A DNA stretch of 57,107 nucleotides from a virus (lineage: Duplodnaviria; Caudoviricetes): positions 1 to 57,107 of the IMG/VR virus record IMGVR_UViG_3300017774_005323; one strand, 5' to 3'. The notes below the pieces were generated by a model. It was not told where the DNA came from. It did no database searches and was given only the letters and a program-made list of their open reading frames with translations. Within the stretch, counting starts at the first letter, position 1. Each line of letters starts with the position of its first letter. Below, piece by piece: positions 3,956 to 56,557 of this stretch. The translations under genes were made by a program, and so were the position numbers.

Positions 3956-4852
3956 ATGGAATTTAGCAACAAAAAAATAGAGCAACTTTTAACCTCGCAA
4001 CTATGGTACATAGATGAGGGATACGGCATTGCCGCTCTTAATTCCTACATACACGACATTTACCTACGCCAAAACGGATTTTCTGCAAACGAGATCGGTT
4101 TATCGGAACGTAGACACGCAAATAAAGCGCTTGTTTACAGCGCGGGCGTTCCGATCAATGATGCAAAACTGATTTACAATACTTCGCTTACCCCTGCCGG
4201 ATCAATCGCAGTTTTGAAATTATCGGGAGTTATGCGCTCCGAGGACGGTTTGAGCAGTAGCGGTATTGCATCGCTTGTTAACGATCTACGGGCTGCATAC
4301 GCAAACGAAAATATCACATCTATTATACTGGAAATCAATAGCGGCGGCGGTGAAGCAACAGCCGGGGCAATGCTTAAAAACGCTATTCAAGAACGGAACA
4401 AGCCTGTTATTTCATACGGGTGGACAGTAGCAAGCGCTGCATACATGGCAGCAGCCGCAACTGATGAAATAATCGCAGCATCCAACGATTCACAGTTTGG
4501 CAGCATTGGTGTTTTATTTTCTTTGAATAAGGGCTTTTTGGAAATGTACACTAATGAGCAGATCGACATTTACGCCGATCAATCAAGCCAAAAAAACGCC
4601 GCATTCCGGGCCGCTCAAAATGGCGACTTTTCAAAATACCAAAAACTTGCAACCGAACATGCCGCCGTTTTTCATAGCGAAGTAATGACAATGCGGACGC
4701 TCAAAGGAAACGAGGGGCGGATTAAATCGACACTTGATGGTTCCATGTTTTTCGCACAAGAAGCGAAAAGCCGGGGGCTTGTGGACAACATAGGAAACTT
4801 TAACCTTGCACTTGACCGCGCCCAAAGATGGGCAAAGAAAAAGCGCATGTAA
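3956..4852 (+). CDS. S49-family prohead protease
   Basis: ILEINSGGG, ASAAYMAAAATDEI, GSIGV and EAKSRGLVD motifs. Confidence 0.9.
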   Translation: MEFSNKKIEQLLTSQLWYIDEGYGIAALNSYIHDIYLRQNGFSANEIGLSERRHANKALVYSAGVPINDAKLIYNTSLTPAGSIAVLKLSGVMRSEDGLSSSGIASLVNDLRAAYANENITSIILEINSGGGEATAGAMLKNAIQERNKPVISYGWTVASAAYMAAAATDEIIAASNDSQFGSIGVLFSLNKGFLEMYTNEQIDIYADQSSQKNAAFRAAQNGDFSKYQKLATEHAAVFHSEVMTMRTLKGNEGRIKSTLDGSMFFAQEAKSRGLVDNIGNFNLALDRAQRWAKKKRM

Positions 4853-7592: not shown

Positions 7593-9011
7593 GTGGCAAA
7601 TTGTTGCGATGAAACATTAACACAAGAGCAGATAGATAATGCTGCGATAAGTGGTAAAACACGCGGCGCGGTGCGTTCTGTTCAATTGCCCGAATTACCT
7701 GACCCAATCCCGAAAGAGATTGAGGATGCGGATTGGCTTAAAAAGTTCTTTGACCAATATAAATACGTTCCCTATGCTGGCACTACACGCGCAACGGGGC
7801 ATAGTTTACTGTATTGGTACATTATGCTTTCTAAGTTGTCCCCAACGCACGGCAGCGCGATTGGAAAGTTAGTAAAGTACGCATTTGGCGGCAAGGCTTA
7901 TTTTGAAAGATCAGAAGACCCCGAATACGATTTGGGTGAGGATGAAATCGAAATGACCCCAACGGAAAAGGCGAACTATTTGGCAGCGCTCAAAGAGTAT
8001 GTTTTGTTTTCGGGCGGCATTGTGAATTTCCATAAGTGGCTTGCAAAATCGCTAAAGGTAACGGGCAATGGTTGGGTTGAAATGTCCTATTCTGAAACGC
8101 TTGGTATTCAAAGGTTTTCATTGAAATACTTGAAACCTACAAGCGTAATGTACAAACTTACGCAGCCGGGCGAAATGCGCGTGGTGGGTATATCGCCGTA
8201 CTGGACAAACGAGTATTTGCAGGAAAACAAACCGCGTCACGTTCCGCTTTTCCCAAATTTTGTGAGCGATGAAATGGGCGTAAATCGCACCATTTTCCAC
8301 TTGAAAGAGGGCGAAGATGTGTGGTACGGAAAGCCTGACAGCGAAAGTGGGGACTTGTACAAATACCGAGAAGTTCAAGACGCGATTTATGTAATACGGC
8401 AAGCGGCGGGCAACTTTACAGGCCAAATGATAATCGAGGTTGAGGGCATCGAAGAATCAGACGACAACGACGCAAAAAGCCTTGGTTTTGACAGTTTTGC
8501 AGATCGGGTAGAACACCAATTTACCCAAAAAGGCAAAGACCCGCAAAGCGTACTTTTCACTTCGCGGCCAATGGGAGCAAAGGAAATGTTTATTTTCCAG
8601 GTGAAGCCAAACACAAACGAAGCGTGGTATGTGGAGATGGGCAAGTTAAGTGCTGAACACGTTTTGCGTTCGCATAAAGTAACGAAACGCTTTATGGCAT
8701 TCGACCAGGCGACAGGATTGGGCGGGCAAAACGCTTTCGTTGAAGACTACATTTTAAATGTGGAGCCTATCATTAAGGAACTTCGCTACAATGTTTTAAA
8801 CTTTACAAACGCGATCCTTACAGAAATTTGGAAGATAATCGGCAAAGAGGATTTAAACCAGTTTTCAGTTTCTTTTGAAAGTCCGGTAAAGGATATGGTT
8901 GAAATGTACACGGAAACACAAAAGAACGCACTTGAACAAAGCCGGGCCGTGTCTACAACTGGAAACGCTGGCAACGCTGCAAGCAATGACATAATCGAAA
9001 CGCAAGATTAA
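7593..9011 (+). CDS. Portal protein
   Basis: 472 aa; LSPTHGSAI, LKVTGNGWVE, IFHLKE...WYGKPD portal-like motifs. Confidence 0.8.
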   Translation: MANCCDETLTQEQIDNAAISGKTRGAVRSVQLPELPDPIPKEIEDADWLKKFFDQYKYVPYAGTTRATGHSLLYWYIMLSKLSPTHGSAIGKLVKYAFGGKAYFERSEDPEYDLGEDEIEMTPTEKANYLAALKEYVLFSGGIVNFHKWLAKSLKVTGNGWVEMSYSETLGIQRFSLKYLKPTSVMYKLTQPGEMRVVGISPYWTNEYLQENKPRHVPLFPNFVSDEMGVNRTIFHLKEGEDVWYGKPDSESGDLYKYREVQDAIYVIRQAAGNFTGQMIIEVEGIEESDDNDAKSLGFDSFADRVEHQFTQKGKDPQSVLFTSRPMGAKEMFIFQVKPNTNEAWYVEMGKLSAEHVLRSHKVTKRFMAFDQATGLGGQNAFVEDYILNVEPIIKELRYNVLNFTNAILTEIWKIIGKEDLNQFSVSFESPVKDMVEMYTETQKNALEQSRAVSTTGNAGNAASNDIIETQD

Positions 9012-9012
9012 A

Positions 9013-9675
9013 ATGGCTATTCTTTCAACAAATGACGTTATAAAATACGCTCCGGTACTTTCAAACTACCCGACAGCGAATATTTGCAATGTCATTTTGC
9101 AGATCGAAGAAGACTATATTTATACTTGTTTTGGTTCAAAGTTTTACGACTATATGGCCGCAAATTTGACGGTTATAACGAGCGTAACGGATTGGGAAAG
9201 CGGCACATCTTACGCGCTTAACGCCATTGTAGAGCGCAACGGTTGCCTATACAAGTCAACAGCGGCGGCAAATTCAAACGATCCGCTTACGGGCACAAAT
9301 TGGACGGCGGTTCAAAAATTTACCGTTGCCTGTTTGAATACGCTTTGGGATACTTATTTGTGCCAAATTTTGGCCCAAAAAACGTACTACCATTGCATTG
9401 TGTTTGACACCTGGACGGCGGGCGCAAAGGGTTTGACGGTGATTGAAGCGGACAATAATGGACAGCGAGATGCAAAGGTGAGCGAAATATCATTAATTCA
9501 GCAAAACGTTTTGCGTCAAATTGATCTTATTTCAGCAAATATGTTTCGTTGGATTCGCAAAGTAAAAGACGATGGAACATGTGTATTTGCTGACATTGAT
9601 CTTTGCGGGGTAGACTGCGAAAGTCCAAAAGTAGGCGCTCGTAGATGGGGACTAAAAAACGTAACAAAATATTGA
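9013..9675 (+). CDS. Head-tail adaptor with a CBM5/12-like insertion
   Basis: Follows portal; internal WESGTSYALNAIVERNGCLYKST...P.TGTNW segment. Confidence 0.6.
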   Translation: MAILSTNDVIKYAPVLSNYPTANICNVILQIEEDYIYTCFGSKFYDYMAANLTVITSVTDWESGTSYALNAIVERNGCLYKSTAAANSNDPLTGTNWTAVQKFTVACLNTLWDTYLCQILAQKTYYHCIVFDTWTAGAKGLTVIEADNNGQRDAKVSEISLIQQNVLRQIDLISANMFRWIRKVKDDGTCVFADIDLCGVDCESPKVGARRWGLKNVTKY

Positions 9676-9676
9676 A

Positions 9677-9982
9677 ATGACAAACGCATTCATTTTAAAA
9701 GCGCAACATTTTTTAGCCAAAAATCTACTTGTTGAATCTGAAACGACAGATCAAATAGCGAGTGAACGAATGTCTGTTTGTATGACTTGTGAGCATCGGA
9801 AAGAGCAGGAAAACAAATGTGGCGTTTGTTGGTGTTTTTTGGACTTGAAAACCAAGGCAGAAACAAATCTAAGCCCCAAAAAAGCAAGGACGGAAATAAC
9901 ACACTGTCCGCTTGGGAAATGGGGCGATCTTGAAATAGCAAACTTTTACCGCGTTTTGGACGGTAAACAACCAATTGAATAA
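9677..9982 (+). CDS. Cys-rich small protein (DUF6171-like)
   Basis: RMSVCMTC...KCGVCWCFLDLKT...HCPLGKW. Confidence 0.65.
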   Translation: MTNAFILKAQHFLAKNLLVESETTDQIASERMSVCMTCEHRKEQENKCGVCWCFLDLKTKAETNLSPKKARTEITHCPLGKWGDLEIANFYRVLDGKQPIE

Positions 9983-10000
9983 CAAATAAAACGAAAAAAC

Positions 10001-10711
10001 ATGATTCGTGAACTTTTGAACCCTACCCAAAACGCTAATAACTTAGCGAAAATAGGTAAGACGGCGAGCGGTTGTTGCCCTGGAACAGCCGAAACCGAAT
10101 GCACTTACACGGTTTTGATACCGACTGCAAACGCGGTAAACAACATTATTTTTAAAGACACTGCGGGCAACAACAAAACCGTTACTTTCAGCCCTGCCGT
10201 AACTGGACAGGCGGCCGTTGTGAAAGCAATTTCAGACGCACTGAAAGCGAATGGCTTTGATGATGATGGCGACGGCATCCCTGGCATCCAAGCGCGTACT
10301 TTGGCAGCAAACACCGAATACTCGATCAACGGCGAAGTAGTTGTAGTTTCGATGCTACACAACACATCTACGACCGTGAACGCAGGAACGGCGCGCTGTG
10401 TAAAACGTGGCCTTTGTCGCGTTGCGGTATCTACCTTCACAGGCGGAGCAAGCACAGCGTTTACCATTAACGGTATTTCTTCGCCTTTGACTTCGATTAC
10501 ACCCGGTACAACCACAGCAGCGCAAGTGTTGACAAAAATCGACACTGCTTTGACTGCGGGCCTTGGTGCGAACAAATACGGAAGCATTGGCGTAACCGAC
10601 AACACCACATCCTACGATTTGGTGTTCTACGTTCCAGTAAACACCGTACTTGTGTTAGGCGGTGTTACATTGACGCTCGACCGTTGCGGCGAAGCCTTTA
10701 CCGTTGCTTAA
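10001..10711 (+). CDS. Structural/decoration protein (putative)
   Basis: 236 aa, Thr/Ala/Val-rich beta protein followed by a hairpin. Confidence 0.6.
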   Translation: MIRELLNPTQNANNLAKIGKTASGCCPGTAETECTYTVLIPTANAVNNIIFKDTAGNNKTVTFSPAVTGQAAVVKAISDALKANGFDDDGDGIPGIQARTLAANTEYSINGEVVVVSMLHNTSTTVNAGTARCVKRGLCRVAVSTFTGGASTAFTINGISSPLTSITPGTTTAAQVLTKIDTALTAGLGANKYGSIGVTDNTTSYDLVFYVPVNTVLVLGGVTLTLDRCGEAFTVA

Positions 10712-10781
10712 TCGAAACCCTGGGAAATTCATAACAATGGCCTGTCTGTTTAACAGGCGGGCCATTTTCAAAAACAGAAAA

Positions 10782-11258
10782 ATGAAACAACTATTTTTTG
10801 CAATTTGCCTTATTCTTTTTTGCGCGAACATTTTAAACGCGCAATTGGTAACGGCGCGCCTTCCGGTATCTTACTCGAAAGTAGCACCGACACTAAAACC
10901 GATCCTTGGTACAACTTCGCACCTTTGGTACAATTCAAGCGTAAGCACGGCAAGCGCTTTGCAAGTGTATGATCGCATCGCGGGGACTTGGTATGCAGCC
11001 GCCGTAAAAAAATTGGATGCAAGCGCTACGCTCGACTTTGGTTCTGTCAACTCGAATTTAACAGCCGATTTGTTTATTCGCATTCCAGGAGTATTGGCAG
11101 GGGAAAAGGTTATTTTGGGCCTACCCTTCAACATACCAGCGGGCGCAATGTACAACGCGAAGGCAACCAATGACACAATATTCATTCGCTACCACAATGC
11201 AACAGCCGGGGCCGTTAATCCGGTTGCGGGTGTTTTTTCAGTTACCGTTTTACGATAA
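10782..11258 (+). CDS. Exported fibre-tip-like protein with Sec signal peptide
   Basis: MKQLFFAICLILFCANILNA|Q; C-terminal beta domain ATLDFGSV...AVNPVAGVFSVTV. Confidence 0.65.
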   Translation: MKQLFFAICLILFCANILNAQLVTARLPVSYSKVAPTLKPILGTTSHLWYNSSVSTASALQVYDRIAGTWYAAAVKKLDASATLDFGSVNSNLTADLFIRIPGVLAGEKVILGLPFNIPAGAMYNAKATNDTIFIRYHNATAGAVNPVAGVFSVTVLR

Positions 11259-11317
11259 TTTTAGAAAGGTAGTCGACACTAAAAATGTCGGCTACCTTTC
11301 ATTTAAAACCAAAACCC

Positions 11318-11893
11318 ATGCGACTATTTATTTTTGTATTACTTTTGTGTAACGCTTTTTCAGCACATGCCCAATTCGATACCATACCGCCAAATGTGGG
11401 CGAGGTTTGGCGCTGGAATGGCAGTATCTTTTCGGCAGACACTTTGCCGCTTAACGGCGATCTAACAGGAAACAGCGAACGCGCGAAGGTTAAGAAGTTG
11501 CAGGGTGTTGAGGTTGCTCCGGATGAACCATTAGACGGCGAAATGCTAATTTATAGCGGCACTTCCCTAAAATACGAACCTTCGCTACCAAGGGCGGCGC
11601 AATCCTACAACACTATTACGGGCGTGATCGGGCCGATTGAATTATCGAGCGCAAAAACCGATAATTTTATAAATCAAGGCAGCACACAAGCGTCTTTTAC
11701 TTTTTCGCTACCTGGCAGTGTTGCAGACGGCTTTGTATCAAGGCTTGTTTTTAACAATGCCGTCACATCCTTAACGATCAACAGTGCCGACGCATCTTCC
11801 ATTTTTGGCACCGTCCCGACTACAACGGCAGGATACGGCGTTTACACGTTTAAGTTTTACACGGGTATAGGATGGATTCGCACAAGTGAGTAA
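11318..11893 (+). CDS. Exported short fibre-like protein with Sec signal peptide
   Basis: MRLFIFVLLLCNAFSAHA|Q; LNGDLTG...AKVKKLQG...PLDGEMLIYSGT fibre motif. Confidence 0.65.
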   Translation: MRLFIFVLLLCNAFSAHAQFDTIPPNVGEVWRWNGSIFSADTLPLNGDLTGNSERAKVKKLQGVEVAPDEPLDGEMLIYSGTSLKYEPSLPRAAQSYNTITGVIGPIELSSAKTDNFINQGSTQASFTFSLPGSVADGFVSRLVFNNAVTSLTINSADASSIFGTVPTTTAGYGVYTFKFYTGIGWIRTSE

Positions 11894-11921
11894 CTAATTT
11901 TTCATCATAAAAACGCATACA

Positions 11922-12401
11922 ATGAAAAACGTCTTAATTCTTTCCTTTTTGCTTTGCTTTTTATCAGCAAGCGCACAATCCCCAAAATACAATTTTAAAG
12001 CCGCTTTTAGATCGGCTATTTTGCCTGCTTCGCTTGCTTTTGTTGGCGGTGTTGCCGGGGGTACGCGAGAAGCTACAATGTGGCGAAAAGACCGCTTTTT
12101 TGAGGTGTTTCCAAAAGCAAACCGCCAATATTGGGACAATCATTTGTCGTGGCGCAATAAATACACCCGACCTTGGTATGTTCCTGTTCAATTGACAGAC
12201 AGTTACCACATGCTTTACGCCGTCCATAACATCGGGCTTGCGGGCGCTTCGATCACAGGAACGGCGCATGTTTCTAAAAACTGGAAATCAAAACCGATAA
12301 AGCATAGGGTTTTAGACATTTTGATTCAAAGCGCTTGTGTTTCGGCTGCTTATTTTGTAGGCAGCGAGGCTACATTTGGCCTGCTTTTTAAAAGACGATA
12401 A
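11922..12401 (+). CDS. Signal-peptide membrane protein
   Basis: MKNVLILSFLLCFLSASA|Q plus hydrophobic segments. Confidence 0.65.
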   Translation: MKNVLILSFLLCFLSASAQSPKYNFKAAFRSAILPASLAFVGGVAGGTREATMWRKDRFFEVFPKANRQYWDNHLSWRNKYTRPWYVPVQLTDSYHMLYAVHNIGLAGASITGTAHVSKNWKSKPIKHRVLDILIQSACVSAAYFVGSEATFGLLFKRR

Positions 12402-12402
12402 A

Positions 12403-15045
12403 ATGAAAAAAATACTATTATTCGCGTTTTTTGCCCTGCTCGCTTCATTTACAGACGCGCAAACTTTCACTTTTGAATGTTATTGCGGCGATCTGTCCGG
12501 GGTGCGTTGTGACATTTGCACAGGACAAACACAAACCCGCTTTTTTTGCGGGCTTTTGGTGAAAAAATCGGGCACCGTTGTAAAATGGATCGACGCACCC
12601 TACCTAATCCAATGGCAGGGCAATAATGCGATTATTAAGGAGATCATACCAAACCCGGAAAGCATAACGATCAATCTTTCGGGTACTTCTTTTGCTAATT
12701 TAGCCGCTTTCAAAGCCGCTTTAGAATGCCCTTGCAACGTCCCTGGCAAACTGTTCTACATTTCGGATAGCCTACGCACGACAAAGGTAATGCGCAATGA
12801 TACGGTGACAATGGTAGGCAGGGGCGGTGCAAGTATTCTACTCGACACAACAAACCAAAAGTTTATCGTAACGGCGGCAACTGGCGCGGCGCAAGTTTTG
12901 AGCGCAACGGGGGCCGGGCCAACGCGGTACAACATCGCGCTTTCGGGCGGCGGCGGTGCGGCTGTTTTGAAAGAAGGCACAACGGGCATAGACTTGTCAC
13001 GGTCAAATGATACAATTACAATCAACAATACAGCACCCGATCAAACAGTAAGCATAACGGGCGGGGGTATTAATGTTGTAGCAGGAACCTACCCAAATTT
13101 CACAATCACAGGCACAGAGGTTGACGGCAACACGGCAAACGAGGGCGTTTTGGGCGTTGGTGCGGGCAGTGCCACATCGTCCGTTTTGCTGTCCAATACA
13201 ACAGGCGCAAGCGGGGTAACGATTAATGCGGCGGGCATAAACACAATTTCCGAAACGACAAGCGCAAACGGTGGGCAAATTACCATAACCGCTACTGAGG
13301 TGGACGGTTCAACAACAAACGAAATCCAAACAATCGCTAATACAAGCGATGCAACAAGTCACACGGCAACGCTTTCAAGTTCGGGCGGGTCTGTTAAGTT
13401 GGTCGAAGGATCAAATATAAGCCTAACAACAACGGGAACGGGTAGTGATGGCATTGTGACAATTGCGGCAACGGGCGGCGGGGTAACATCACTTAATTCG
13501 CTTACAGGCGCTTTGAGCATCTTAGGTGAGCGCGGTATAACAATTGGCGCATCTACGCCTAACATAACGGTAGGCTTGCCAACATCGACAAATACGCACA
13601 CTTTGCGGTACGACGGTACAAACTGGATTACAAACAGCCAAATCACAAACAACGGCAACGAAATAGGCATAGGCGGCGCGCCGCTTTCAGGCTTTGAGGC
13701 TTATATTAACGGCGCTACCCGAATGGACGGGGCAATGGTAAGCAGGGGCGCTGGCAACCCGGTATCAGGTATAACATCGCCACATGCAAGGCTTTGGAAC
13801 ACAACACTGTCAACAGGTGACACATGGTATTTAGCATCGCTCGACACGGGCGCGTTCCATTTGATTAGCGGTAATTTAGGCGCAAGTGTTCTAATGGCAA
13901 CAACAGCCGGGCAAGTACAAACAAATGCAGGGTTAAGGATCGGCAGCGTTTCGGGTACACCTACAAGTATAATCGGCAGAAACGCAAGCGGTGATGTTGG
14001 CGCAATTAGCATAGGTTCGGGCCTTACGCTTTCGGGCGGTTCGCTTTCGGCTGCGGCGGGTAGTTCAAATTGGACGGTTTCGGGTTCGGACATTTACAGA
14101 TTAAGCAATGTATCGGTAGGAACAACAACCGCAACGGGCGCAAAACTGCAAGTAACAGACGCAACAGATGCGGATATAATATTGGCAACAGATGGCACCC
14201 TTGTTTCGGGCGATGCGTTTTTTCGTACATCGGGAACGCTTGGAACAACAGGCGGATTTACTTATGCTTTCGATGGCAGTGTATCGGCAACGGGTAGTAA
14301 TGTCATAAGCCGCACATTCAACACATCGACTACAAACGCGGCATCAAACGCCATTAGGCAAGTGATTGTAGGCGGCGGTAGCGCGGGCGACCCAATATCG
14401 CAATACATCGTAAACGGTGCAACGACTTGGACAACAGGTATAGATAATAGTGTTTCTGGCGATCCGTTCAAATTATCAGCAAGCACTGTGCCGGGAACGT
14501 CGGACGTTATGGAGATTGCAACGGGCGGCTATTTTGGGTTTTCCACAACACCCGCAACAGATTTAACAGCGCGATGGGGGCTTGCAATTCCTTTTGGACT
14601 ACCAACGGGCGGTACTGCAAACAGGCACACATCATCTATTGCGGGCATTTGGGGGAATTCAGATTTAAACCGGATCGAAGCAAAAACGGCGGCGGGAACA
14701 ACATACAAAACACTTCTTAGTTACGCTACCCCAACAGCGACAAAACAGGCGGCGGCTGGATCAACAGGAACGGCGACACTTGCAACAAACTCAAATGATA
14801 AGGCAGGTCAGGTCACAATAGTAGTTTCTGGGACGGGCATAACATCTGGGCCGCTTGTAAATATAACCTATTCTGGTTCAATGCTTGGAACGCCGTTTGT
14901 GACATTAACCGCTCGGAATGGCCCCGCTGCCGGGCAAATGACAAACTTTTTTATCGGCAGCCAAAGCAGCACAGTTTTTTCTATTGACGCAAACACAGCG
15001 CCCGCCGCTGGAACATACATTCTGAATTATTCAGTGCAGCAATAG
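12403..15045 (+). CDS. Large fibre/adhesin-like protein (880 aa) with Sec signal peptide
   Basis: MKKILLFAFFALLASFTDA|Q; Gly/Thr/Ser-rich; TEVDG...NE repeats and GIG fibre motifs. Confidence 0.75.
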   Translation: MKKILLFAFFALLASFTDAQTFTFECYCGDLSGVRCDICTGQTQTRFFCGLLVKKSGTVVKWIDAPYLIQWQGNNAIIKEIIPNPESITINLSGTSFANLAAFKAALECPCNVPGKLFYISDSLRTTKVMRNDTVTMVGRGGASILLDTTNQKFIVTAATGAAQVLSATGAGPTRYNIALSGGGGAAVLKEGTTGIDLSRSNDTITINNTAPDQTVSITGGGINVVAGTYPNFTITGTEVDGNTANEGVLGVGAGSATSSVLLSNTTGASGVTINAAGINTISETTSANGGQITITATEVDGSTTNEIQTIANTSDATSHTATLSSSGGSVKLVEGSNISLTTTGTGSDGIVTIAATGGGVTSLNSLTGALSILGERGITIGASTPNITVGLPTSTNTHTLRYDGTNWITNSQITNNGNEIGIGGAPLSGFEAYINGATRMDGAMVSRGAGNPVSGITSPHARLWNTTLSTGDTWYLASLDTGAFHLISGNLGASVLMATTAGQVQTNAGLRIGSVSGTPTSIIGRNASGDVGAISIGSGLTLSGGSLSAAAGSSNWTVSGSDIYRLSNVSVGTTTATGAKLQVTDATDADIILATDGTLVSGDAFFRTSGTLGTTGGFTYAFDGSVSATGSNVISRTFNTSTTNAASNAIRQVIVGGGSAGDPISQYIVNGATTWTTGIDNSVSGDPFKLSASTVPGTSDVMEIATGGYFGFSTTPATDLTARWGLAIPFGLPTGGTANRHTSSIAGIWGNSDLNRIEAKTAAGTTYKTLLSYATPTATKQAAAGSTGTATLATNSNDKAGQVTIVVSGTGITSGPLVNITYSGSMLGTPFVTLTARNGPAAGQMTNFFIGSQSSTVFSIDANTAPAAGTYILNYSVQQ

Positions 15046-15114
15046 CGCAAAAACAATACTTTCTTTTTTGGGTTTTTGGCCGTAAATTTGCGCTATCCCC
15101 TGCAAAAATTAGCC

Positions 15115-15447
15115 ATGTCAGAAATCGAAAAATCAGAGCAAGAAAAGGAGTTTGACGCATGGGGACTTTCTAAAATCCTTGTGCGTAACATTGTTGTAGG
15201 GTTTATCATTTGCCTTTTATCGGCAATTGCGTACCTTTCTGCAACAATTCGCACCAAAGAGTCACTGAATAAGCAACTTCAATGCGAATTAATCATTTGC
15301 AAAGAGGATGCTACCCGGCAAGTTGAGCGCCTGAAAGATCAACAAATAAAACTGATGGAGCAAATTAGCGCCATTTACGAAAAACAAGTTGAGGTGGAGC
15401 GCAATGTGCAAGCCACTGTAAAAAAGTTGAGAAACCTGGATAAATGA
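15115..15447 (+). CDS. Holin-like or lysis membrane protein
   Basis: Single TM plus coiled coil, in the cluster before the endolysin. Confidence 0.5.
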   Translation: MSEIEKSEQEKEFDAWGLSKILVRNIVVGFIICLLSAIAYLSATIRTKESLNKQLQCELIICKEDATRQVERLKDQQIKLMEQISAIYEKQVEVERNVQATVKKLRNLDK

Positions 15448-15680
15448 AAACATTAATCGCGTTTATTATTTTTGAGGTCTTTGCATTTTTTGCGGTGATC
15501 TTTTATTTTGAAGGGCAAACACCAAAGCCAAAAGCAAGTACGGCCGATGTTGAACGCATCGAGCATGTAAACGACAGCATCGCGGTCAAACTAATAAAAG
15601 ATAGTTTGCGATTTGATAACGCTCTAAAGCAGTCAAAAGCGATGCGAAAAGAAGTTGAAACTTTAACTAAACATAAATAA
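15444..15680 (+). CDS. Membrane-anchored small protein (lysis cluster)
   Basis: N-terminal TM; ATGA overlap with the previous gene. Confidence 0.5.
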   Translation: MKTLIAFIIFEVFAFFAVIFYFEGQTPKPKASTADVERIEHVNDSIAVKLIKDSLRFDNALKQSKAMRKEVETLTKHK

Positions 15681-15684
15681 AAAA

Positions 15685-16083
15685 ATGGGAAACCAGCCAA
15701 TTTGGAAGCGTGAAAACTTCCTTTTCAATTTGATTATGCTTGTGGGCGTGGGCTTTGGCCTTTCAACCGGACTTGCAAGCGAAACCGTTGCTTACCTTTT
15801 GGGCGTTGTTGGCCTTGTGGGTAACTGGCGATTGTTTGTAAAAGATGCAAAGTTCGCGGGATTTTTAGCGATCTTGAAAAATCCGAACTTTTGGCCGTTC
15901 TTGTTGGGCTTTCTTACGTCCTTTTCTCCGGTACTTGGAAGCCTTGTCCCTTCGCTCAAAGATTTATTCGATGCGATCATTGCAAAGAACTACGGCGCAA
16001 TGCTTACGGCGGTTTTCTCGATTGGTGCAGTAATTTGGGGGATAATTCAAAACCCGCCAAAACCAGCAACGGCAAACGCATAA
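15685..16083 (+). CDS. Multi-TM holin candidate
   Basis: Three to four hydrophobic helices; adjacent to the endolysin. Confidence 0.55.
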   Translation: MGNQPIWKRENFLFNLIMLVGVGFGLSTGLASETVAYLLGVVGLVGNWRLFVKDAKFAGFLAILKNPNFWPFLLGFLTSFSPVLGSLVPSLKDLFDAIIAKNYGAMLTAVFSIGAVIWGIIQNPPKPATANA

Positions 16084-16170
16084 ATAATAAAGAGTGTTCA
16101 ATGGGATTTTTCGGGCTTGCCAAACGTGGCGAGCCTTTTTTATTTCCATTACCTTTGTAAAAACCCAAAA

Positions 16171-16620
16171 ATGAAAGTTTCAAAGAATTTTGTTATAGAG
16201 GAGTTTGTGCCACCTCAAATAATACGCCTTTACAAAGGCGATGAACGCTGCTTGTGGTTTGTTGACCCGCGCATTATTGAAGGCGGTCAATTAGTGCGCG
16301 ATATACTCGACAGCGCTATAACGATCAACAACTACCATGTAGGAGGGCCGTACAAAGAACGCGGCTTTAGACTGCCAAACACAAGAACGGGCGCGTCTTA
16401 TTCACAGCATCGTTTTGGCCGGGCGATTGATCTTTCGAGCGAAAAATATACCCCTCTTGAAATCATTGAAGCAATGCGGGCCAATTATAGCAAATTTGCA
16501 GAAATTGGAATATGCACAATTGAAAACCCTGAATTTACAAAAACCTGGGTACACATGGATTGCAGACCCGCGCTTTCGATCTACCCAAAAAACGACTTTT
16601 TTATGGTAAATCCGGTTTAA
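16171..16620 (+). CDS. Endolysin, peptidase M15 family
   Basis: SKNFVIEEF, GFR, SQHRFGRAID and WVHMD Zn-binding motifs. Confidence 0.88.
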   Translation: MKVSKNFVIEEFVPPQIIRLYKGDERCLWFVDPRIIEGGQLVRDILDSAITINNYHVGGPYKERGFRLPNTRTGASYSQHRFGRAIDLSSEKYTPLEIIEAMRANYSKFAEIGICTIENPEFTKTWVHMDCRPALSIYPKNDFFMVNPV

Positions 16621-16634
16621 TCCTTTCGTAAAAA

Positions 16635-16725
16635 TACGTTGGTCGATTAAAAGTGTGCGTTTGTCGATAAATAAGGCACGTTCGTCGATACGATGGGAAA
16701 AATTAGGATGGCGCTATTATCTTTG
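16635..16725 (+). promoter_or_regulatory. Triple-box promoter P1
   Basis: GTCGAT at 16642, 16663, 16684; TATCTTTG at 16718. Confidence 0.85.
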
Positions 16726-16995: not shown

Positions 16996-17015
16996 CAGTT
17001 TTCTAAGCCAAACAA

Positions 17016-17047
17016 AACGCCTTGCACATCGCAGGGCGTTTCTTTTT
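17016..17047 (+). terminator. Intrinsic terminator
   Basis: aaacgccttgc-acatc-gcagggcgttt plus T-rich tail. Confidence 0.75.
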
Positions 17048-22006: not shown

Positions 22007-22750
22007 ATGTCATTTACAACACAAGAAAACGCACCGGACAGCAGCCGGAAAACAATTGCTGAAAAATGCGGAAACGACGCAGCCGCAATAGAAGCCATGC
22101 GGAAACGCTGGAGCCGATATATCGGAACCGCTTTTGATCGGAACCATGTAGCGACGGACGCGGAAATGTGCCTGTTATACCCAAGCGGAAACGCACGGAC
22201 AAAAAAACCGCTAAAGGAAACCAAAGCGGAAACTTTGGACATTCCAAAAGCGGAAACAAAAGCGGACATTTTACCGGACATTAAAGCGGAAACGGACACA
22301 ACACCACAAACGGAAACAACTCAAAAAACGGAACGGACAAACGGACAAAAAGCCGTTTTGATCGCTTGTATGGCTGTCCCCGCTATTGCATCGCTACAAA
22401 ATATGTGGGCGGTTACGTCGGACATAAGCGGACACGTTTCGATGTCCGTTTTGCTCACACTTTTATTTTCCGCTTTTCCGTTTGCGCTTACTTTGGCCGG
22501 GGCAACTACGAAAGCCGGGCGCATACTTGTCGGGCTTATGATCGTATATGAAGGCTTTTGCAACTTCATACGCATATACGGCGGCTTAACGGGATTTGGA
22601 AAAGATGGCTACCCTACCCGCTTTTTGGGCATTGTTACGGAGGTGCTGAACACGGGAACATACGGCACCGCAACCGTTTTGGCAGCGATTATGGCGCTAC
22701 TTTGCGGCGCTGTTTTTTACATTTCTTACAACGAATTATTAAAAAAGTAG
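22007..22750 (+). CDS. Membrane protein with putative N-terminal DNA-binding region and repetitive linker
   Basis: Basic helical N-terminus, KAET repeats, about 4 C-terminal TM helices. Confidence 0.65.
   Translation: MSFTTQENAPDSSRKTIAEKCGNDAAAIEAMRKRWSRYIGTAFDRNHVATDAEMCLLYPSGNARTKKPLKETKAETLDIPKAETKADILPDIKAETDTTPQTETTQKTERTNGQKAVLIACMAVPAIASLQNMWAVTSDISGHVSMSVLLTLLFSAFPFALTLAGATTKAGRILVGLMIVYEGFCNFIRIYGGLTGFGKDGYPTRFLGIVTEVLNTGTYGTATVLAAIMALLCGAVFYISYNELLKK
22035..22480. repeat. CGGA(A/C)A motif array 1
   Basis: 22 CGGA copies at 22035-22432 in all three frames, then 3 inverted TCCG copies. Confidence 0.85.
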
Positions 22751-22753
22751 CAT

Positions 22754-23089
22754 ATGGCAGTCTTTGAAATTACGGTTAAATCGCGCCCTATCGAGGCGCT
22801 AAAGTCAAACCAGCAAGCGCCGGGGGTGTTTGATTGGTCCGAATCAAAGCAGATCGAACTGACCTTAACCGAAATTTCAAAGATTAAGCAAAAGCACCAG
22901 GGCTACACCCCAAACCTCACCCGTGCCGTTCGGGTAAAGCGCTTAATGTTGGAGTGTTACAGCCTAAATGACATTATAAAAATACTCAAACACAACGGGC
23001 GGGGGTACGGCGAACGTATGCTTAAAAAGGATCATGCAGCCCTGACAGAATCCAAGCCCCCTATCGGTAGGGGAGTGGCCTCAAAATAG
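22754..23089 (+). CDS. Basic hypothetical protein, possibly DNA-binding
   Basis: 111 aa; helical C-terminus RAVRVKRLML...GYGERMLKKD. Confidence 0.55.
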   Translation: MAVFEITVKSRPIEALKSNQQAPGVFDWSESKQIELTLTEISKIKQKHQGYTPNLTRAVRVKRLMLECYSLNDIIKILKHNGRGYGERMLKKDHAALTESKPPIGRGVASK

Positions 23090-23157
23090 TGCCTATACGG
23101 TGCAATTCGTTTTGCACTTTTCATAAATCATTCATTCACAATAAAATACAACGCAAC

Positions 23158-24762
23158 ATGCAAAAGACTTTTGCACCTACTTTGCCCCGCCTTCAAACCT
23201 TATTTTTGTTCGGGGTAGGGGTATGTATGCTTTTGGGATTGTCCCTAACCATAGCGGCTTACATGCTTTTGCCGATCAATCCAAATGGCGATGAATTAAT
23301 TTTAATGATCGTTTCATGGGGTAGTAGCGCCTTCATTCTTACGATGAATTTTTGCCTTTGTGGACTATTCGCCGCGTGTATTGTCGCTTCGATTATCTAC
23401 AACATGGGCAAAGGGTTAACGATTAATCACACGGTTTTGGAACTTACAAACGGCGAAAAACTGCAACAACTAAACGCCGTAACAATTAGCCCCGACCTAT
23501 TGATCGTAAACCAAACGAATACAGAAACAAAGCGCGATCTATTGGAAAGGTTTAACCAGGCAAAAGCAAACCAGGTAGACGGCGTTTGGATTGTCTGCAT
23601 TGCATACCAAGACGTTTGCGGCTTGCTCATAACTGACACGGGCGAATCATACGCCTTTGATCGTAACACACCGCCGTTCCAAGCCGATGAAACAGAAACG
23701 CCAATTGCAGCGCATGACTACAAGGGCGAAACATGGGCCGAATACCAAGCCTATTTGAACGAATTTTGTTTCCACTATAACAGATGGGCACCGCGTGAAA
23801 AACTGATTGCTCCAACCGGGAAAAGCGCGGAAAAGAAAATTAATGTCCTTTGGTCATTGTCCGTTTTGTTTGTCCTTTTCGCGTTTCCTTTGTCCGCTCA
23901 AAAGTCCGTCCGGGTTATGGAGTACTTAGGACAAACGCGCTATTTGTCCGTTCGCCCTATCGGACAAGTTAAGTTTGTTTTTGAGGACACGCCGATCAAC
24001 CGGACAGGGGACGGAACAAAGACTTATGCGGAACTTTTGAAAGGCGGCGCATACTTTAACGATGCGGACAATGCTGGACGGCTTATCGCTATTCAAGTTG
24101 TAAACGGTGGGCAAATAAAAACCGTCTACCCAGACAAAGCCGAAACGCCGCAAACGTCACAAACTTCAAAAACTTCAAAAACTTCAAAAACGGCGAGTGC
24201 AAGCGTTACACAAAGCGCACTACCAGCGCCGGGCGAATTGCAATTAGATGACAGTTTGCAAACAGCGATTGCAATTGAAGCATGGAAAGAAAAGATCGAC
24301 AAAAGCACAAAAAAGATATGGGGGCAAAGTTTGCAATGGTGGAAACTTGCTATCTATGTGTTGGGTAACTTTTTCCATGTACTTATGGGGCTTTTGGGTA
24401 TCAGTATCCTTGTCGCAAAAACAGCAACAAAAGAAAGTGTAATAAATGCGTGTGGAACAAGTATATACGGCGGCTATCTGCATAACATTGCGGCGGGTGC
24501 GATACTTTGGACATACATTTTTTCCATTTTGATTGCGATTATAATGCTGATAAATATCTATATACTTGCATTAACAGGCGACTTCGCCTCTATTGTTTCG
24601 ATTTTCATATCCTGGCAATTCGGGGGCGTTATATTATGGTTTGCTCTTATCGCAATTGTTAGAAAAATTGTAAACAAAGTTGTACCTGACCCGCAAGTTA
24701 TAAACGCGCCGCCGCATCGACCATACGCAGCGCCGAATCAGTATAAAGGCTTAAATCAATAA
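23158..24762 (+). CDS. Polytopic membrane protein (534 aa)
   Basis: Two N-terminal TMs, internal KK-hydrophobic-LSA|Q segment, about 3-4 C-terminal TMs. Confidence 0.7.
   Translation: MQKTFAPTLPRLQTLFLFGVGVCMLLGLSLTIAAYMLLPINPNGDELILMIVSWGSSAFILTMNFCLCGLFAACIVASIIYNMGKGLTINHTVLELTNGEKLQQLNAVTISPDLLIVNQTNTETKRDLLERFNQAKANQVDGVWIVCIAYQDVCGLLITDTGESYAFDRNTPPFQADETETPIAAHDYKGETWAEYQAYLNEFCFHYNRWAPREKLIAPTGKSAEKKINVLWSLSVLFVLFAFPLSAQKSVRVMEYLGQTRYLSVRPIGQVKFVFEDTPINRTGDGTKTYAELLKGGAYFNDADNAGRLIAIQVVNGGQIKTVYPDKAETPQTSQTSKTSKTSKTASASVTQSALPAPGELQLDDSLQTAIAIEAWKEKIDKSTKKIWGQSLQWWKLAIYVLGNFFHVLMGLLGISILVAKTATKESVINACGTSIYGGYLHNIAAGAILWTYIFSILIAIIMLINIYILALTGDFASIVSIFISWQFGGVILWFALIAIVRKIVNKVVPDPQVINAPPHRPYAAPNQYKGLNQ
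23828..24080. repeat. TGTCC/GGACA motif array 2
   Basis: About 8 GTCC/TTCC copies followed by about 9 GGAC/CGGAA copies; orientation flips near 23930-23960. Confidence 0.75.
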
Positions 24763-25504: not shown

Positions 25505-25720
25505 ATGACAACCGCACAACAAATACAATTCGCTGCAAGTGTTCAAATTGGAACACAAATAGAAATGGGCAATGATTCGGTTTTAACTGTTACCGAGATA
25601 GGCAAACATTCGTTTGTTGGAACCTTAAAAGTAAAAGGCCGTCAAATTAACGATGAATGTCTTTTAACTTTTCAAACCATTTCAAATCCGCACTACAATA
25701 AGAACTTGCGCATAATATGA
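25505..25720 (+). CDS. Small beta-rich accessory protein
   Basis: 71 aa; AAAACGCA leader. Confidence 0.65.
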   Translation: MTTAQQIQFAASVQIGTQIEMGNDSVLTVTEIGKHSFVGTLKVKGRQINDECLLTFQTISNPHYNKNLRII

Positions 25721-26616
25721 GCAATCTTATTCAAACACTCCTAAGCCTGTCCGGTTGGACGGGCTTTTTTATCTGCTTTTTGCTAGTTTGGTGCATTTGG
25801 CAGTTTAACAGGCTGCTTTATTTCGCCGTGAAATGGCTTGTACGAGCATTGCGCTTCATTGCGCCCGCTATTGTGCGCCCGACCTTAACGCGCTTATTTG
25901 TGTGTGCTACGTTTGCGCTGTGCCTGTTTTTATGGCGCTTGCAAGTTTCGGACGCTTTACAGTATGTGGAGCAAATGTATATTGCGCCCGTGTACGCTAT
26001 GCCTGACACTTCAACACACGCTTTGGCATGTTTTGAAGCGAAGGCGAAAAAGCACCTGGATAGTTATGAGTTTGAAACATTCAAAAGCGAAACCGCAAGC
26101 ATCGCAGCCCAAACAGGTAGTACACCGCTTGCGTTTTACATGGTGTACCTATCTGAATGCGGCATGAATCCGTTTATTATTCGAGAAGATGGCAATGCGG
26201 CCGGGCCTATCCAATTCACGCGAACAGGTTTAGAGGGGCTAAAAATTAATGACAAACCCGCTACCCTTGACATGGTAAAAGCCATGTGTGTAAAGCGTGA
26301 CATATCGGGCTTAATGCGCCTGACACGGGAATATATGATCGACCGGGCAAAGGGCAAACCGCTTAAAAGACCGTGCGATGTATACACATGCGTTTTTGCA
26401 CCGTCTTTTGTGGGGGCTGATGAAAGCACGGTTTTGTACCAAGGCTATCAAAACCCGCAATACTACAAAAACGCTGGCTTAGACGGTTATCGAATCGTAA
26501 ACGGGCGCTACGTTCGCCTAAATGCGTATTGTGATGGAAAATTAACTATTTCCGACCTTGCAATATCGCTCGAAGCAAAAAAGGCGGCAGTGCTCCGGTC
26601 GTTTGTCGATAAATAA
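25717..26616 (+). CDS. Membrane-anchored lytic transglycosylase/lysozyme-fold protein
   Basis: Two N-terminal TMs; LSECGMNP...AAGPIQFT, DVYTCVFAP, YYKNAGLD...DGKLT. Confidence 0.7.
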   Translation: MSNLIQTLLSLSGWTGFFICFLLVWCIWQFNRLLYFAVKWLVRALRFIAPAIVRPTLTRLFVCATFALCLFLWRLQVSDALQYVEQMYIAPVYAMPDTSTHALACFEAKAKKHLDSYEFETFKSETASIAAQTGSTPLAFYMVYLSECGMNPFIIREDGNAAGPIQFTRTGLEGLKINDKPATLDMVKAMCVKRDISGLMRLTREYMIDRAKGKPLKRPCDVYTCVFAPSFVGADESTVLYQGYQNPQYYKNAGLDGYRIVNGRYVRLNAYCDGKLTISDLAISLEAKKAAVLRSFVDK

Positions 26617-26697: not shown

Positions 26698-27045
26698 ATG
26701 AAAAAAGCATTTCTTTTTCTTTGCCTGTTTGCCCCGATGCTTGCCTTTTCGCAACAGGGCAAAACATACCCGGTCACTTTTGCGGAACACCAAACCGATC
26801 AAATTGACATTTTCCGTTTCAAAACGGTAAAAATTAGTTTTGTTCAAAAATCAGATTTTCAGTACGATGTGCTGTTTGATTTTTACAACGGCAAACACTA
26901 CTACGAATCCGTTAGGCGCATCCCAAACGAAAGCGATGTAATGGTTTTCACAAACAAAAATCACGGACGCTACGAGGTTGCTTGCGTTTCTGGTACTGTG
27001 GTTTATTTCCAAAACGGTTTTAAAGCCACCGTTTATGAAAACTAA
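26698..27045 (+). CDS. Small exported protein
   Basis: MKKAFLFLCLFAPMLAFS|Q signal peptide. Confidence 0.7.
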   Translation: MKKAFLFLCLFAPMLAFSQQGKTYPVTFAEHQTDQIDIFRFKTVKISFVQKSDFQYDVLFDFYNGKHYYESVRRIPNESDVMVFTNKNHGRYEVACVSGTVVYFQNGFKATVYEN

Positions 27046-35420: not shown

Positions 35421-35459
35421 AAACCAAGTAAAAACCATTTTTAAAACAAACATAAACAA

Positions 35460-49043: not shown

Positions 49044-49054
49044 CCTTATCAAAC

Positions 49055-55678: not shown

Positions 55679-55711
55679 CCTTATATTTGTCAAAACAAAA
55701 ACATCAATAAA

Positions 55712-56465: not shown

Positions 56466-56557
56466 AACAAAAAACCTTGCAACCAAGCCGCTCACATAGA
56501 GCGGCTTTTTTATTGCCATTTACCCAACTTTTTACCGTATTTTTGCAAAAAAAAGAA

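Follow-up and report, generated by a model that had tools for sequence, protein, structure and literature searches.

The window analysed here, the whole stretch of 57,107 nucleotides, is the complete 57-kb genome of a phage of a Bacteroidota host. Four consecutive genes on its + strand (10782-15045) open with predicted signal peptides, in the order given by the original prediction: gpA (10782-11258, 158 aa; leader MKQLFFAICLILFCANILNA, residues 1-20, 10782-10841), gpB (11315-11893, 192 aa; leader MRLFIFVLLLCNAFSAHA, residues 1-18, 11315-11368), gpC (11922-12401, 159 aa; leader MKNVLILSFLLCFLSASA, residues 1-18, 11922-11975) and gpD (12403-15045, 880 aa; leader MKKILLFAFFALLASFTDA, 19 residues ending in FTDA, 12403-12459, with a predicted cut before Gln20). 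In all four, Gln stands at position +1. The start of gpD is the ATG at 12403, the mechanical ORF opening at a TTG at 12376. In-frame ATGs lie upstream of the chosen starts of gpA (at 10737) and gpB (at 11285). The close relatives L003, L004 and L005 start gpA at MKQLF, and L003 and L005 start gpB at MRLF, the upstream ATG being present in L004 as in the window; for both genes the leader is retained whichever start is taken.

The flanking genes on both sides bear out the placement of this cassette between the head module and the lysis genes. Upstream lie an S49 prohead protease (3956) and a putative capsid gene (5417), and genes continue from the head module up to 10711. The last of them (10001-10711, + strand) encodes a 236-aa protein without leader, which forms a conserved left border: among 26 related loci, 20 have its homologue directly 5' of the leader-bearing genes. 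It has four invariant cysteines (C25, C26, C34 and C133 in alignment A5), and its AF2 model (pLDDT 80.8) gives weak fold matches. Directly downstream on the + strand are the lysis genes, i.e. three membrane proteins (15115-15447, 15444-15680 and 15685-16083) and an M15-type endolysin without leader (16171-16620). Terminator-like + strand hairpins are present at 16113-16136 and 17015-17041, and no hairpin of comparable strength was found in the intergenic gaps between 9000 and 15045.

Leaders were called with a rule-based leader+Gln detector made for this analysis (not SignalP). It was positive for 8 of the 82 genes of the window, for none of the 115 remaining ORFs (50 aa or longer), and for 107 of 16,400 shuffled N-termini (0.65%). 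If the 8 positives are scattered randomly over 82 genes, four or more stand in a row in about 0.3% of trials. By the rules of the detector, each of the four leaders begins with basic residues, goes on with a hydrophobic core free of charges and closes with a short polar stretch. The residues before the cut are LNA (gpA), AHA (gpB), ASA (gpC) and TDA (gpD), small at -1 and small or aliphatic at -3, where the Leu of gpA is less usual. The rule that Gln at +1 is typical of Bacteroidota, which the original prediction had invoked, is indeed in print: PMC5837995 describes a Gln following the leader as a trait of this phylum's signal peptidase I substrates (the Bacteroidetes Q-rule).

The original prediction had named signal conservation in related phages as a check, and leaders are kept across homologues and loci. 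Leader and Gln are present in 10 of 12 gpA homologues, the remaining two, on short contigs, opening exactly at the mature end, and in all 11 close homologues of gpB; leader-bearing homologues of gpC occur in L003, L004 and L017. Of the 120 listed homologues of gpD, a leader is present in 99, and 95 of these show a predicted cut before Gln (X/Q). Sixteen of the 21 leaderless ones open, as would be seen with truncated gene calls, within the shaft repeats or N-domains of longer, leader-bearing relatives, and the other five, judged by eye, inside the leader or N-domain. Gln20 of gpD is invariant in 33 aligned homologues, most of them just 28-37% identical to gpD. In 20 related loci, leader and Gln were found in 54 of the 67 ORFs of the cassette (counted from the 236-aa gene to the lysis genes or the contig end), 13 lacking a leader, and in 0 of 173 + strand ORFs of the upstream virion module.

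A family-wide test without bias from the leader was possible because profile A7, built from 15 sequences of the mature gpD N-domain, excludes it. Searched against 1.84 billion proteins, A7 matched 135 cluster representatives, of which 122 have at least 15 residues ahead of the domain; 121 of these are called as leaders, 118 with X/Q, and in the four matches outside the X/Q rule leader and Gln are visible by eye. In the A7 matches the domain is never internal to a protein and always follows the leader directly. Sequence comparison thus gives strong support to the leaders as real features, conserved far beyond overall identity and followed by an invariant Gln. The original prediction would have fallen had the true starts lain downstream of the hydrophobic segments; alternative downstream starts are unconserved, in contrast to the leader, the Gln and the small residues at -1 and -3.

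gpD is Gly/Thr-rich as claimed (Thr 15.2%, Gly 13.4%, Ala 10.6%, Ser 10.3%) and can be divided into three parts behind the leader. The N-domain, named FEC domain here (12460-12777), has about 100 aa, is beta-rich and contains 7 Cys (pLDDT 74-87, AF2 monomer); its invariant residues are F24, C26, C36, C39, R46, F48, G50, I63, P66, E80 and C109. Of 38 distinct N-domains, 6 carry 4 Cys, 24 carry 6 and 8 carry 7. The fifth Cys lies at one of three places, and a second Cys always joins it in the C-terminal CxC. This gain and loss of cysteines in pairs points to disulfides formed outside the cytoplasm. The FEC domain was not detected in any of the 401 Bacteroidota genomes sampled (as positive control, the genome of the phage itself scored E 1.7e-47), was unmatched in a pattern scan of species-representative genomes, and shows strict synteny with head-module genes.

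The Gly/Thr/Ser-rich shaft (12778-14589) contains repeated units with the sequence TGTEVDGxTxNE and is modelled as short, low-confidence beta strands with pLDDT below 50 across much of residues 117-556 (AF2 monomer); this module is common to many homologues and to some cellular leader-bearing proteins. The C-terminal beta-sandwich (residues about 730-880; 14590-15045 with the stop codon) is modelled at pLDDT 91-97. It has a weak likeness to phage tailspike C-terminal domains and lectins (Z 5.6-6.5, all VIA Z scores being below 8, a value that the tool calls common), including weak matches to LKA1 gp49 (VIA Z 6.5, rmsd 2.6, 78 residues aligned) and to K64-1 S2-4 and the Pam1 tailspike (Z 6.2 each). 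Foldseek gave no PDB match to gpD at E <= 0.001 and 53 BFVD matches at this threshold, tail fibre and minor tail proteins included. No catalytic domain is recognisable in gpD; some family members, such as P0085, have a pectate-lyase-like domain (Pfam PF12708, E 1.1e-12) behind the same N-domain.

Fibre-like composition is restricted to gpD and a 1251-aa protein (G+T+S+A+N 54-56%, against 30-39% in the other large proteins). By composition, the claim that the genome has no long fibre without a signal peptide therefore stands, but a leaderless ORF of 908 codons, located after the tape measure and a 569-aa protein, has weak tail-tip leads, so the phage need not depend on exported fibres alone. 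The 1251-aa protein (..FVSA before Gln) forms with a 207-aa protein (..ASA before Gln) a second leader-bearing pair (45288-49678, + strand); in L017, relatives of both share one cassette with relatives of gpD and gpC. Residues 311-407 of the 1251-aa protein match PDB 8ojn_C (E 1.3e-5), which appears together with entries 8onb and 8onc. Its numbering and molecule name suggest that 8ojn is one of the Bdellovibrio fibre series.

Among the partners, gpA is probably a small fibre-like or adhesin-like protein, predicted to be exported; its C-terminal 80 aa share 44% identity with the C-terminal end of a 1007-aa protein from L039. The C-terminal domain of gpB also occurs alone, without leader, in P0132. 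gpC has two further moderately hydrophobic stretches besides its leader and is possibly membrane-associated; its nearest Atlas clusters are viral hypothetical proteins. A glycosyl-hydrolase-like lipoprotein and a subtilase (..SDA before Gln) are also encoded on the + strand (34158-37028).

Sorting signals were sought in the exported proteins. No type IX C-terminal sorting domain (Por_Secre_tail, CHU_C or TIGR04183 type) was detected in any of the window's nine with NCBIfam at E <= 1, nor in seven C-terminal pieces of 119 aa with Pfam at E <= 5, although the same Pfam library did detect such domains in neighbours of cellular homologues. A lipobox was found solely in the 34158-35420 protein (..FFAS before Cys); none was seen, even at lenient thresholds, in the 1251-aa protein or in gpA-gpD, which have Gln at +1 instead. 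O-glycosylation motifs show no clear enrichment: the exported proteins have 19 (13 expected) and the others 39 (32 expected).

Conventional tail fibres and tailspikes normally lack a signal peptide, and both folding and attachment take place in the cytoplasm. Those of P22 and LKA1 (tailspikes) and of T7 and T4 (fibres) resemble gpD in their modular layout, in which a conserved N-terminal part is followed by a repetitive shaft and a variable end that binds sugars (putatively so in gpD), and conventional fibres are likewise encoded late in the structural block beside the lysis genes; the likeness in fold is weak, and, unlike in these proteins, a leader is found throughout the gpD family, which sets it apart from leaderless cytoplasmic assembly. 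Closer in this respect are the Cellulophaga baltica phages phi18:3 (NC_021794; gp085-gp087) and phi46:3 (NC_021792; gp081-gp083), whose proteins of 312-785 aa carry, as here, Sec-type leaders followed by Gln and are encoded, like gpA-gpD, in one block directly 5' of the lysis genes. Their structural status is taken from GenBank notes, in records that do not mention leaders: gp085, gp086 and gp087 are annotated from MS/MS as virion structural, structural and tail protein, and gp081-gp083 as pectate lyase and tail fiber protein (both by similarity) and virion structural protein (no basis given). Co-purifying envelope material could explain such detections. These proteins have no detectable sequence similarity to gpA-gpD, and both phages are podovirus-type Pachyviridae whereas the window phage has a tape measure.

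The same layout is found in a cell. In PMC10769870, the mosaic adhesive trimer (MAT) fibres of Bdellovibrio bacteriovorus have a signal peptide, a conserved beta-rich N-domain of about 130 aa (about 100 aa in gpD), a phage-type fibre and a variable tip, which by analogy speaks for the feasibility of exported phage-type fibres. Foldseek places three structures of Bdellovibrio fibres (8ond, 8ol4 and 8onf) among the highest of its weak matches to gpD. The likeness is one of architecture, and PDB searches with gpD gave no significant match. Moreover MAT fibres, as described there, are encoded by a cell and placed on its surface, whereas gpA-gpD are phage-encoded, and part of the MAT family has an S74 chaperone-protease domain, none of which was found in gpA-gpD. 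For phages, the accessible text of PMC10367356 reports five Q-rule genes of unassigned function in Porphyromonas gingivalis prophages, with a predicted signal peptidase I cut exposing Gln; the authors see an adaptation to the host's general secretion pathway and propose that the products are possible outer-membrane modifiers. In that text the phages are temperate and the genes are described neither as fibre-like nor as a cassette, in contrast to gpA-gpD.

Leaders, their conservation and the Cys pattern make the export of gpA-gpD well supported, and the fibre-like late proteins are very probably made outside the cytoplasm. This half of the original inference is strongly supported. Of its two outcomes, docking on virions or decoration of the host, we tentatively favour docking, by analogy with the Cellulophaga phage proteins: the fibres would fold in the periplasm and attach to virions when the cell lyses. 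On this view the four genes would make up a movable cassette of late genes, and the host Sec pathway would carry its products out of the cytoplasm, signal peptidase I removing the leader ahead of Gln. In Bacteroidota, Gln exposed by this peptidase is normally cyclised to pyroglutamate. With its leader, Cys-rich N-domain, Gly/Thr shaft and lectin- or tailspike-like end, gpD would be laid out as a receptor-binding fibre; its N-domain would be oxidised in the periplasm to form two or three disulfides, and the chains may assemble as trimers. gpA and gpB would be short relatives of gpD's kind, and gpC a small hydrophobic partner. Since gpA-gpD have no detected type IX sorting domain or lipobox, they should wait in the periplasm until holin and leaderless endolysin breach the envelope and bring them together with finished particles. 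The conserved N-domain would then most likely anchor these proteins on the virion, where they would serve as accessory fibres for host recognition, docking being the most conjectural of these steps. We know of no tailed phage whose particles acquire parts outside the cytoplasm. The shaft module also counts against docking: its presence in leader-bearing proteins of one Chitinophaga genome, in a cellular setting beside type IX cargo, implies building blocks common to cell-surface proteins.

That same cellular occurrence would suit exported proteins that never join the particle and act on the envelope or surface of the infected cell, where they would block superinfection, mask or bind receptors, or make that cell adhere to its neighbours, with the N-domain gripping an envelope component. 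We consider this rather unlikely, yet it has the sole printed reading of Q-rule phage leaders, i.e. host outer membrane modification in the accessible text on Porphyromonas phages (PMC10367356), and the MAT fibres of the same layout, which sit on the surface of the producing cell. The exported subtilase and glycosyl-hydrolase-like lipoprotein also fit a programme aimed at the host envelope. Against it, gpA-gpD and the 1251-aa protein lack a type IX domain or lipobox, so that no known Bacteroidota surface route applies; the genes lie just 5' of the lysis genes, a position that suggests late expression and would leave little time for a surface function; and the N-domain, found in 0 of 401 Bacteroidota genomes and syntenic with head genes, would be odd in a binder of cell components and points to the virion rather than the cell.

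It is less probable still that the proteins are stored in the periplasm until lysis sets them free, never on particles, as soluble adhesins or as proteins that bind or cut polysaccharides. They would then condition neighbouring cells or debris, e.g. strip or mask receptors and in this way save progeny from being lost. The pectate-lyase-like domain of P0085 behind a gpD-type N-domain, the leader-bearing gp081 of phi46:3 annotated as pectate lyase, and the weak likeness of the gpD end to lectins and depolymerase C-terminal domains would agree with such a role, but gpD itself has no recognisable catalytic domain, and an N-domain that is only N-terminal and confined to phage-type contigs looks like an attachment module, needless for a free enzyme. 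Very improbable, finally, are uncleaved anchors or start-codon artefacts, with fibres assembled on particles in the cytoplasm. The calls do come from a rule-based detector, and 21 of 120 gpD and 2 of 12 gpA homologues have leaderless starts; yet the leaderless gpD homologues begin inside the shaft, N-domain or leader of longer relatives, cleavage-site residues are conserved where alternative starts are not, the Gln is a signal peptidase I substrate trait in the phylum, and the paired cysteines suit an oxidising compartment. Whether the exported fibres dock at lysis, as we favour, or act elsewhere, a Bacteroidota phage appears to equip a series of fibre-like late proteins, of the host-recognition type, with its host's own secretion signal.

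The distribution of Sec-type signal peptides (leaders) in the window was analyzed with a detector built on our own rules, not with SignalP. It requires a hydrophobic core without charged residues, a small residue at both -1 and -3, and a Gln at +1. The original prediction of four consecutive genes whose leaders end in LNA, AHA, ASA and TDA, with Gln as the next residue, holds as it was stated. These genes, all on the + strand, are gpA (10782-11258, 158 aa; LNA), gpB (11315-11893, 192 aa; AHA), gpC (11922-12401, 159 aa; ASA) and gpD (12403-15045, 880 aa; TDA). The detector was positive for 8 of the 82 genes, for 0 of the 115 other window ORFs of at least 50 aa and for 107 of 16,400 shuffled N-termini; given 8 positives in 82 genes, a run of four occurs in about 0.3% of trials. 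The description of gpD as an 880-aa fibre rich in Gly and Thr was likewise borne out (15.2% Thr, 13.4% Gly), and its seven Cys are all found within residues 1-112. Besides its leader, gpC has two more moderately hydrophobic stretches, and its closest Atlas clusters are viral hypothetical proteins. No family in Pfam, PHROGs or NCBIfam could be assigned to gpA-gpD.

Nine proteins of the window carry export signals, eight with a leader and Gln and one with a lipobox. The gpA-gpD block is one of two fibre-type clusters; the other (45288-49678, + strand) encodes a fibre-like 1251-aa protein and a 207-aa protein, both with leader and Gln. There is no detectable overall relationship between gpD and the 1251-aa protein, and the cultured-phage collection holds no relative of the 207-aa protein. 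The remaining three are a subtilase (35460-37028, + strand; leader ending SDA|Q; Peptidase_S8, E 8e-32), a glycosyl-hydrolase-like protein (34158-35420, + strand; lipobox FFAS|C; Pfam Glyco_hydro_cc, E 2.4e-6) and a 115-aa protein of the early or middle region (26698-27045; leader ending LAFS|QQ). The N-terminal 57 residues of the latter give a sub-cut-off match to the N-terminal model of PorU, the type IX sortase (E 2.3e-4, 21 bits for a cut-off of 40), which probably reflects the leader only. Enrichment of O-glycosylation motifs is unconvincing, with 19 against 13 expected in the exported proteins and 39 against 32 in the rest.

The record represents a whole virus (57,107 bases, a 123-base direct terminal repeat, estimated completeness 100), with every sizeable gene on the + strand and no tRNA gene found. 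Recognisable genes, all on this strand, include the large terminase (40815-42107), the tape measure protein (51036-53966), an S49 prohead protease (3956-4852) with first a coiled-coil protein and then a 426-aa putative capsid protein downstream of it, and an M15-type endolysin without leader (16171-16620), upstream of which lie three small membrane proteins. The first of these membrane proteins (15115-16083 for the three) has an N-terminal anchor and a tail resembling a coiled coil, and may be a spanin-like component; next to it no lipoprotein partner was detected. The phage has no near cultured relative: the closest terminase of a cultured phage is 38% identical, and neither the region 10001-16700 nor gpD has any DNA or protein match in the cultured-phage collection. 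In IMG/VR, gpD had a single, partial relative and the putative capsid protein had none. Two leaderless virion-module proteins upstream of the block possess an invariant double Cys near the N-terminus (alignments A5 and A6). In a 472-aa protein (7593-9011) these are C4 and C5; the 236-aa protein that borders the block (10001-10711) has C25 and C26, together with C34 and C133. Small leaderless proteins in the corresponding region of related phages also begin with CC-type motifs. For the fold of the 236-aa protein, the only likenesses, at Z up to 5.5, were to outer domains of phage sheath and tail-tip proteins and of flagellar proteins, too weak to name it.

The fibre-like character of gpD is supported, not proven, by composition, repeats and weak fold likenesses. 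In an AF2 model built from a 44-row alignment (mean pLDDT 63), the leader is helical, the N-terminal domain (N-domain, residues 22-110) is beta-rich (pLDDT 74-87), the Gly/Thr shaft is ill-defined and a C-terminal beta-sandwich is confident (pLDDT 91-97). At E <= 0.001, Foldseek gave no PDB match, the best weak rows being the P22 tailspike and Bdellovibrio fibres, and 53 matches to viral models, including tail fibre and minor tail proteins. A wide structural search reached Z of at most 6.6, under the tool's telling level, with residues 630-732 resembling phage baseplate or spike pieces and residues 775-880 tailspike C-termini and lectins. We also agree that, judged by composition, no long leaderless fibre is evident in the genome. 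Apart from the tape measure, the large leaderless products are a 569-aa protein and that of a 908-codon ORF, neither of which is fibre-like in composition. This ORF comes after the tape measure and 569-aa genes and spans the record ends (56477-57107 continuing into 124-2219, the 123-base terminal repeat counted once); its Atlas leads to the TipJ and Phage-tail_3 families are weak (scores 0.79-0.81). PDB sequence searches with gpD, the 908-codon ORF, the 569-aa protein and the 472-aa and 236-aa profiles gave nothing usable.

Conservation of the leaders in homologues, which had been proposed as a check, was found throughout the family. The start Met of gpA is identical in the close relatives on three related loci (L003, L004 and L005); gpB starts with MRLF in L003 and L005, and L004 carries an upstream ATG. 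Leader and Gln are kept in 10 of 12 gpA homologues and in all 11 close homologues of gpB. The C-terminal domain of gpB is found alone in a leaderless 118-aa protein, P0132 (48% identity over 94 residues, E 1e-22). For gpD, 317 homologues were found; among the 120 listed, 99 have a leader, 95 of these with Gln at +1. Sixteen of the 21 leaderless ones were checked, and all start within the shaft repeats or N-domains of longer leader-bearing relatives; the other five, inspected by eye, begin in the leader or in the N-domain. A profile built on the mature N-domain without leader (A7; 15 sequences, 103 positions) was compared with 1.84 billion cluster representatives and gave 135 matches at E <= 0.001. 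Where at least 15 residues precede the domain (122 matches), a leader was called in 121 and Gln at +1 in 118; in the remaining four, which are extended upstream or have Thr at -1, leader and Gln are recognisable by eye. The other 13 matches are truncated, either in the leader or in the domain itself. In no match is the domain internal; its start always lies at about residue 19-72. In 33 aligned gpD homologues, most of them 28-37% identical to gpD, Gln20 is invariant, as are F24, C26, C36, C39, R46, F48, G50, I63, P66, E80 and C109. Export of the fibre-type cassette is thus very probable, as firmly as sequence alone permits. One or two gpD homologues may be truly leaderless, such as P0008 (1300 aa, beginning in the shaft); that the proteins are not exported at all is highly improbable.

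The Cys of the N-domain follow a regular pattern. Of 38 distinct N-domains, four Cys were counted in 6, six in 24 and seven in 8. The four-Cys core consists of FxC, CxxC and one Cys near position 87. A fifth Cys occurs at one of three places, differing by subfamily; domains with this fifth Cys have a CxC in place of the late Cys, and those lacking it keep one late Cys only. Since Cys are gained and lost in pairs, disulfides are predicted, a single zinc site not predicting such pairing, and we infer from this pattern an oxidising compartment. The Cys evidence for the exported proteins lies in this pattern only and not in overall content, which is not raised (0.70% vs 1.65% elsewhere).

The surroundings of the block were examined in related phages, with a narrower alignment for the locus scans, the first being too diverse. 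The metagenome scan gave 26 loci, 20 of which contain a homologue of the 236-aa border protein. The head module upstream of this homologue is colinear with that of the window (33-96% identity); downstream, the cassette is variable and comprises one to eight ORFs. Its gpD-type proteins are 374-1148 aa long. Giant proteins (1564 and 1803 aa) that have a different N-domain are also found, and in L017 the cassette includes relatives of gpC as well as of the second cluster of the window. Leader and Gln are present in 54 of the 67 cassette ORFs of the 20 loci, and in the first ORF past the border gene in 18 of 20, whereas the detector called 0 of 173 + strand ORFs upstream; near-duplicate loci (L007/L008, L012/L013, L024/L025, L017/L020) mean that these counts overstate independence. 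By this partition, the cassette behaves as a unit of export between head-module and lysis genes. In the window, no strong terminator-like hairpin was found in the intergenic gaps of 9000-15045, and strong ones lie at 16113 and 17015, a weak hint of co-transcription; a sigma-70 promoter scan stayed at chance level (16 vs 13.4 expected). On L004 (12418-21991), a close relative with 87% identity in the capsid protein, the genes that come after the lysis genes are related to those at window 22007-24762, then 53969-56053, then 25717-26616. This gene order is unlike that of the window and reflects either rearrangement or mis-assembly.

As to the destination of these proteins, docking of the exported fibres on virions at lysis is a reading to which we give nearly even weight on the present analysis. 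No type IX C-terminal sorting domain was detected in any of the nine exported proteins, although the same Pfam library found such domains elsewhere, and gpA-gpD have no lipobox. Known Bacteroidota surface routes need such signals, and without them gpA-gpD should remain periplasmic until lysis. With a leaderless endolysin and holin-like proteins, lysis would then mix periplasm and cytoplasm. The composition of the large leaderless proteins and the weakness of the tail-tip leads also count for docking. The gpD N-domain, moreover, seems to be a phage-restricted attachment module: it was not found in 401 genomes drawn from across the phylum to which a Chitinophaga genome belongs (positive control E 1.7e-47), in three genomes holding the shaft module, or in a pattern scan of species-representative genomes. 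In Cellulophaga phage phi18:3, gp085, gp086 and gp087 are encoded immediately ahead of the lysis genes. Their leaders end in GYS|Q, VSA|Q and LNA|Q, and their GenBank notes give experimental MS/MS proteomics as the basis of annotation. Leaders are also found in phi46:3 on gp081 (pectate lyase) and gp082 (tail fiber protein), both annotated by similarity, and on gp083 (virion structural protein), for which the record states no basis. The leader proteins of these two phages are, however, not homologous to gpA-gpD. The proteomics is reportedly that of Holmfeldt et al. 2013.

Other observations speak against docking or favour a different fate. Eight loci from bacterial genome bins contain the shaft module, seven of them named Chitinophaga, Lewinellaceae, Draconibacterium or Bacteroidales, which belong to Bacteroidota, and so do 5 of the 401 sampled genomes, counting the central Chitinophaga genome. 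The latter encodes two shaft proteins (1130 and 1297 aa, leader and Gln) amid type IX cargo genes, which is a cellular setting; Bacteroidota cells may produce phage-fibre-like surface proteins of their own. Their neighbour in this setting (L032 1145-4687 and 5218-8610 and L035 5218-9111, the shaft proteins included) is a protein of 1180 aa that also has a leader; it contains an S74 'chaperone of endosialidase' domain (E 9e-28) and, as a weak match, a type IX sorting domain. A segment of the 1251-aa protein matches PDB 8ojn_C (E 1.3e-5), presumably a member of the Bdellovibrio fibre series. The secreted protease and glycosidase (34158-37028) suggest envelope remodelling. According to PMC10769870, the phage-type fibres of Bdellovibrio, in which a conserved beta-rich domain comes after the signal peptide, sit on the surface of Bdellovibrio itself. 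Porphyromonas prophages carry Q-rule leaders on five function-unassigned genes, for which the authors suggest modification of the host outer membrane (PMC10367356). An action of the exported proteins on the host envelope is a minority possibility, rather unlikely in our view, and their release as free proteins is more doubtful still. A literature search on signal peptides of Bacteroidota phage tail fibres found no description of leader-bearing fibres; the related literature that it returned comprises this Porphyromonas report and a signal-peptide count in two Bacteroides phages.

Textbook assembly of tailed phages is entirely cytoplasmic. Under docking, one can tentatively propose, with slightly less confidence than for docking itself, that tailed phages of Bacteroidota assemble their particles in two compartments and add fibres at lysis. 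Head and tail would be produced in the cytoplasm; the outer host-recognition fibres would pass through Sec export and receive their pyroglutamate cap, disulfides and trimerisation in the periplasm; the holin would then open the inner membrane, and the fibres would be clipped on through the phage-only N-domain, the lysis step doubling as the final assembly step. If lysis were the last step of assembly, this would explain why cassettes adjoin lysis genes.

The new elements here are the test of the leader across a family without bias, the covariation of the N-domain Cys, the partition of leaders at the cassette border, an N-domain apparently restricted to phages beside a shared shaft, and the Bdellovibrio fibre parallel. 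The N-domain offers an experimental handle, with 135 clusters, an invariant Gln, four invariant Cys and its absence from the cellular genomes searched. Expressing such fibres would need an oxidising compartment and a mature N-terminus, and the annotation of metagenomic Bacteroidota phages, where such genes are now labelled 'hypothetical', is concerned as well. A large fibre-type family that always bears the export signal of its host would mean either a periplasmic branch of virion assembly or a widespread secreted fibre-like set targeting the host envelope; either case bears on host prediction from receptor-binding proteins and on why the cassettes travel with lysis genes.
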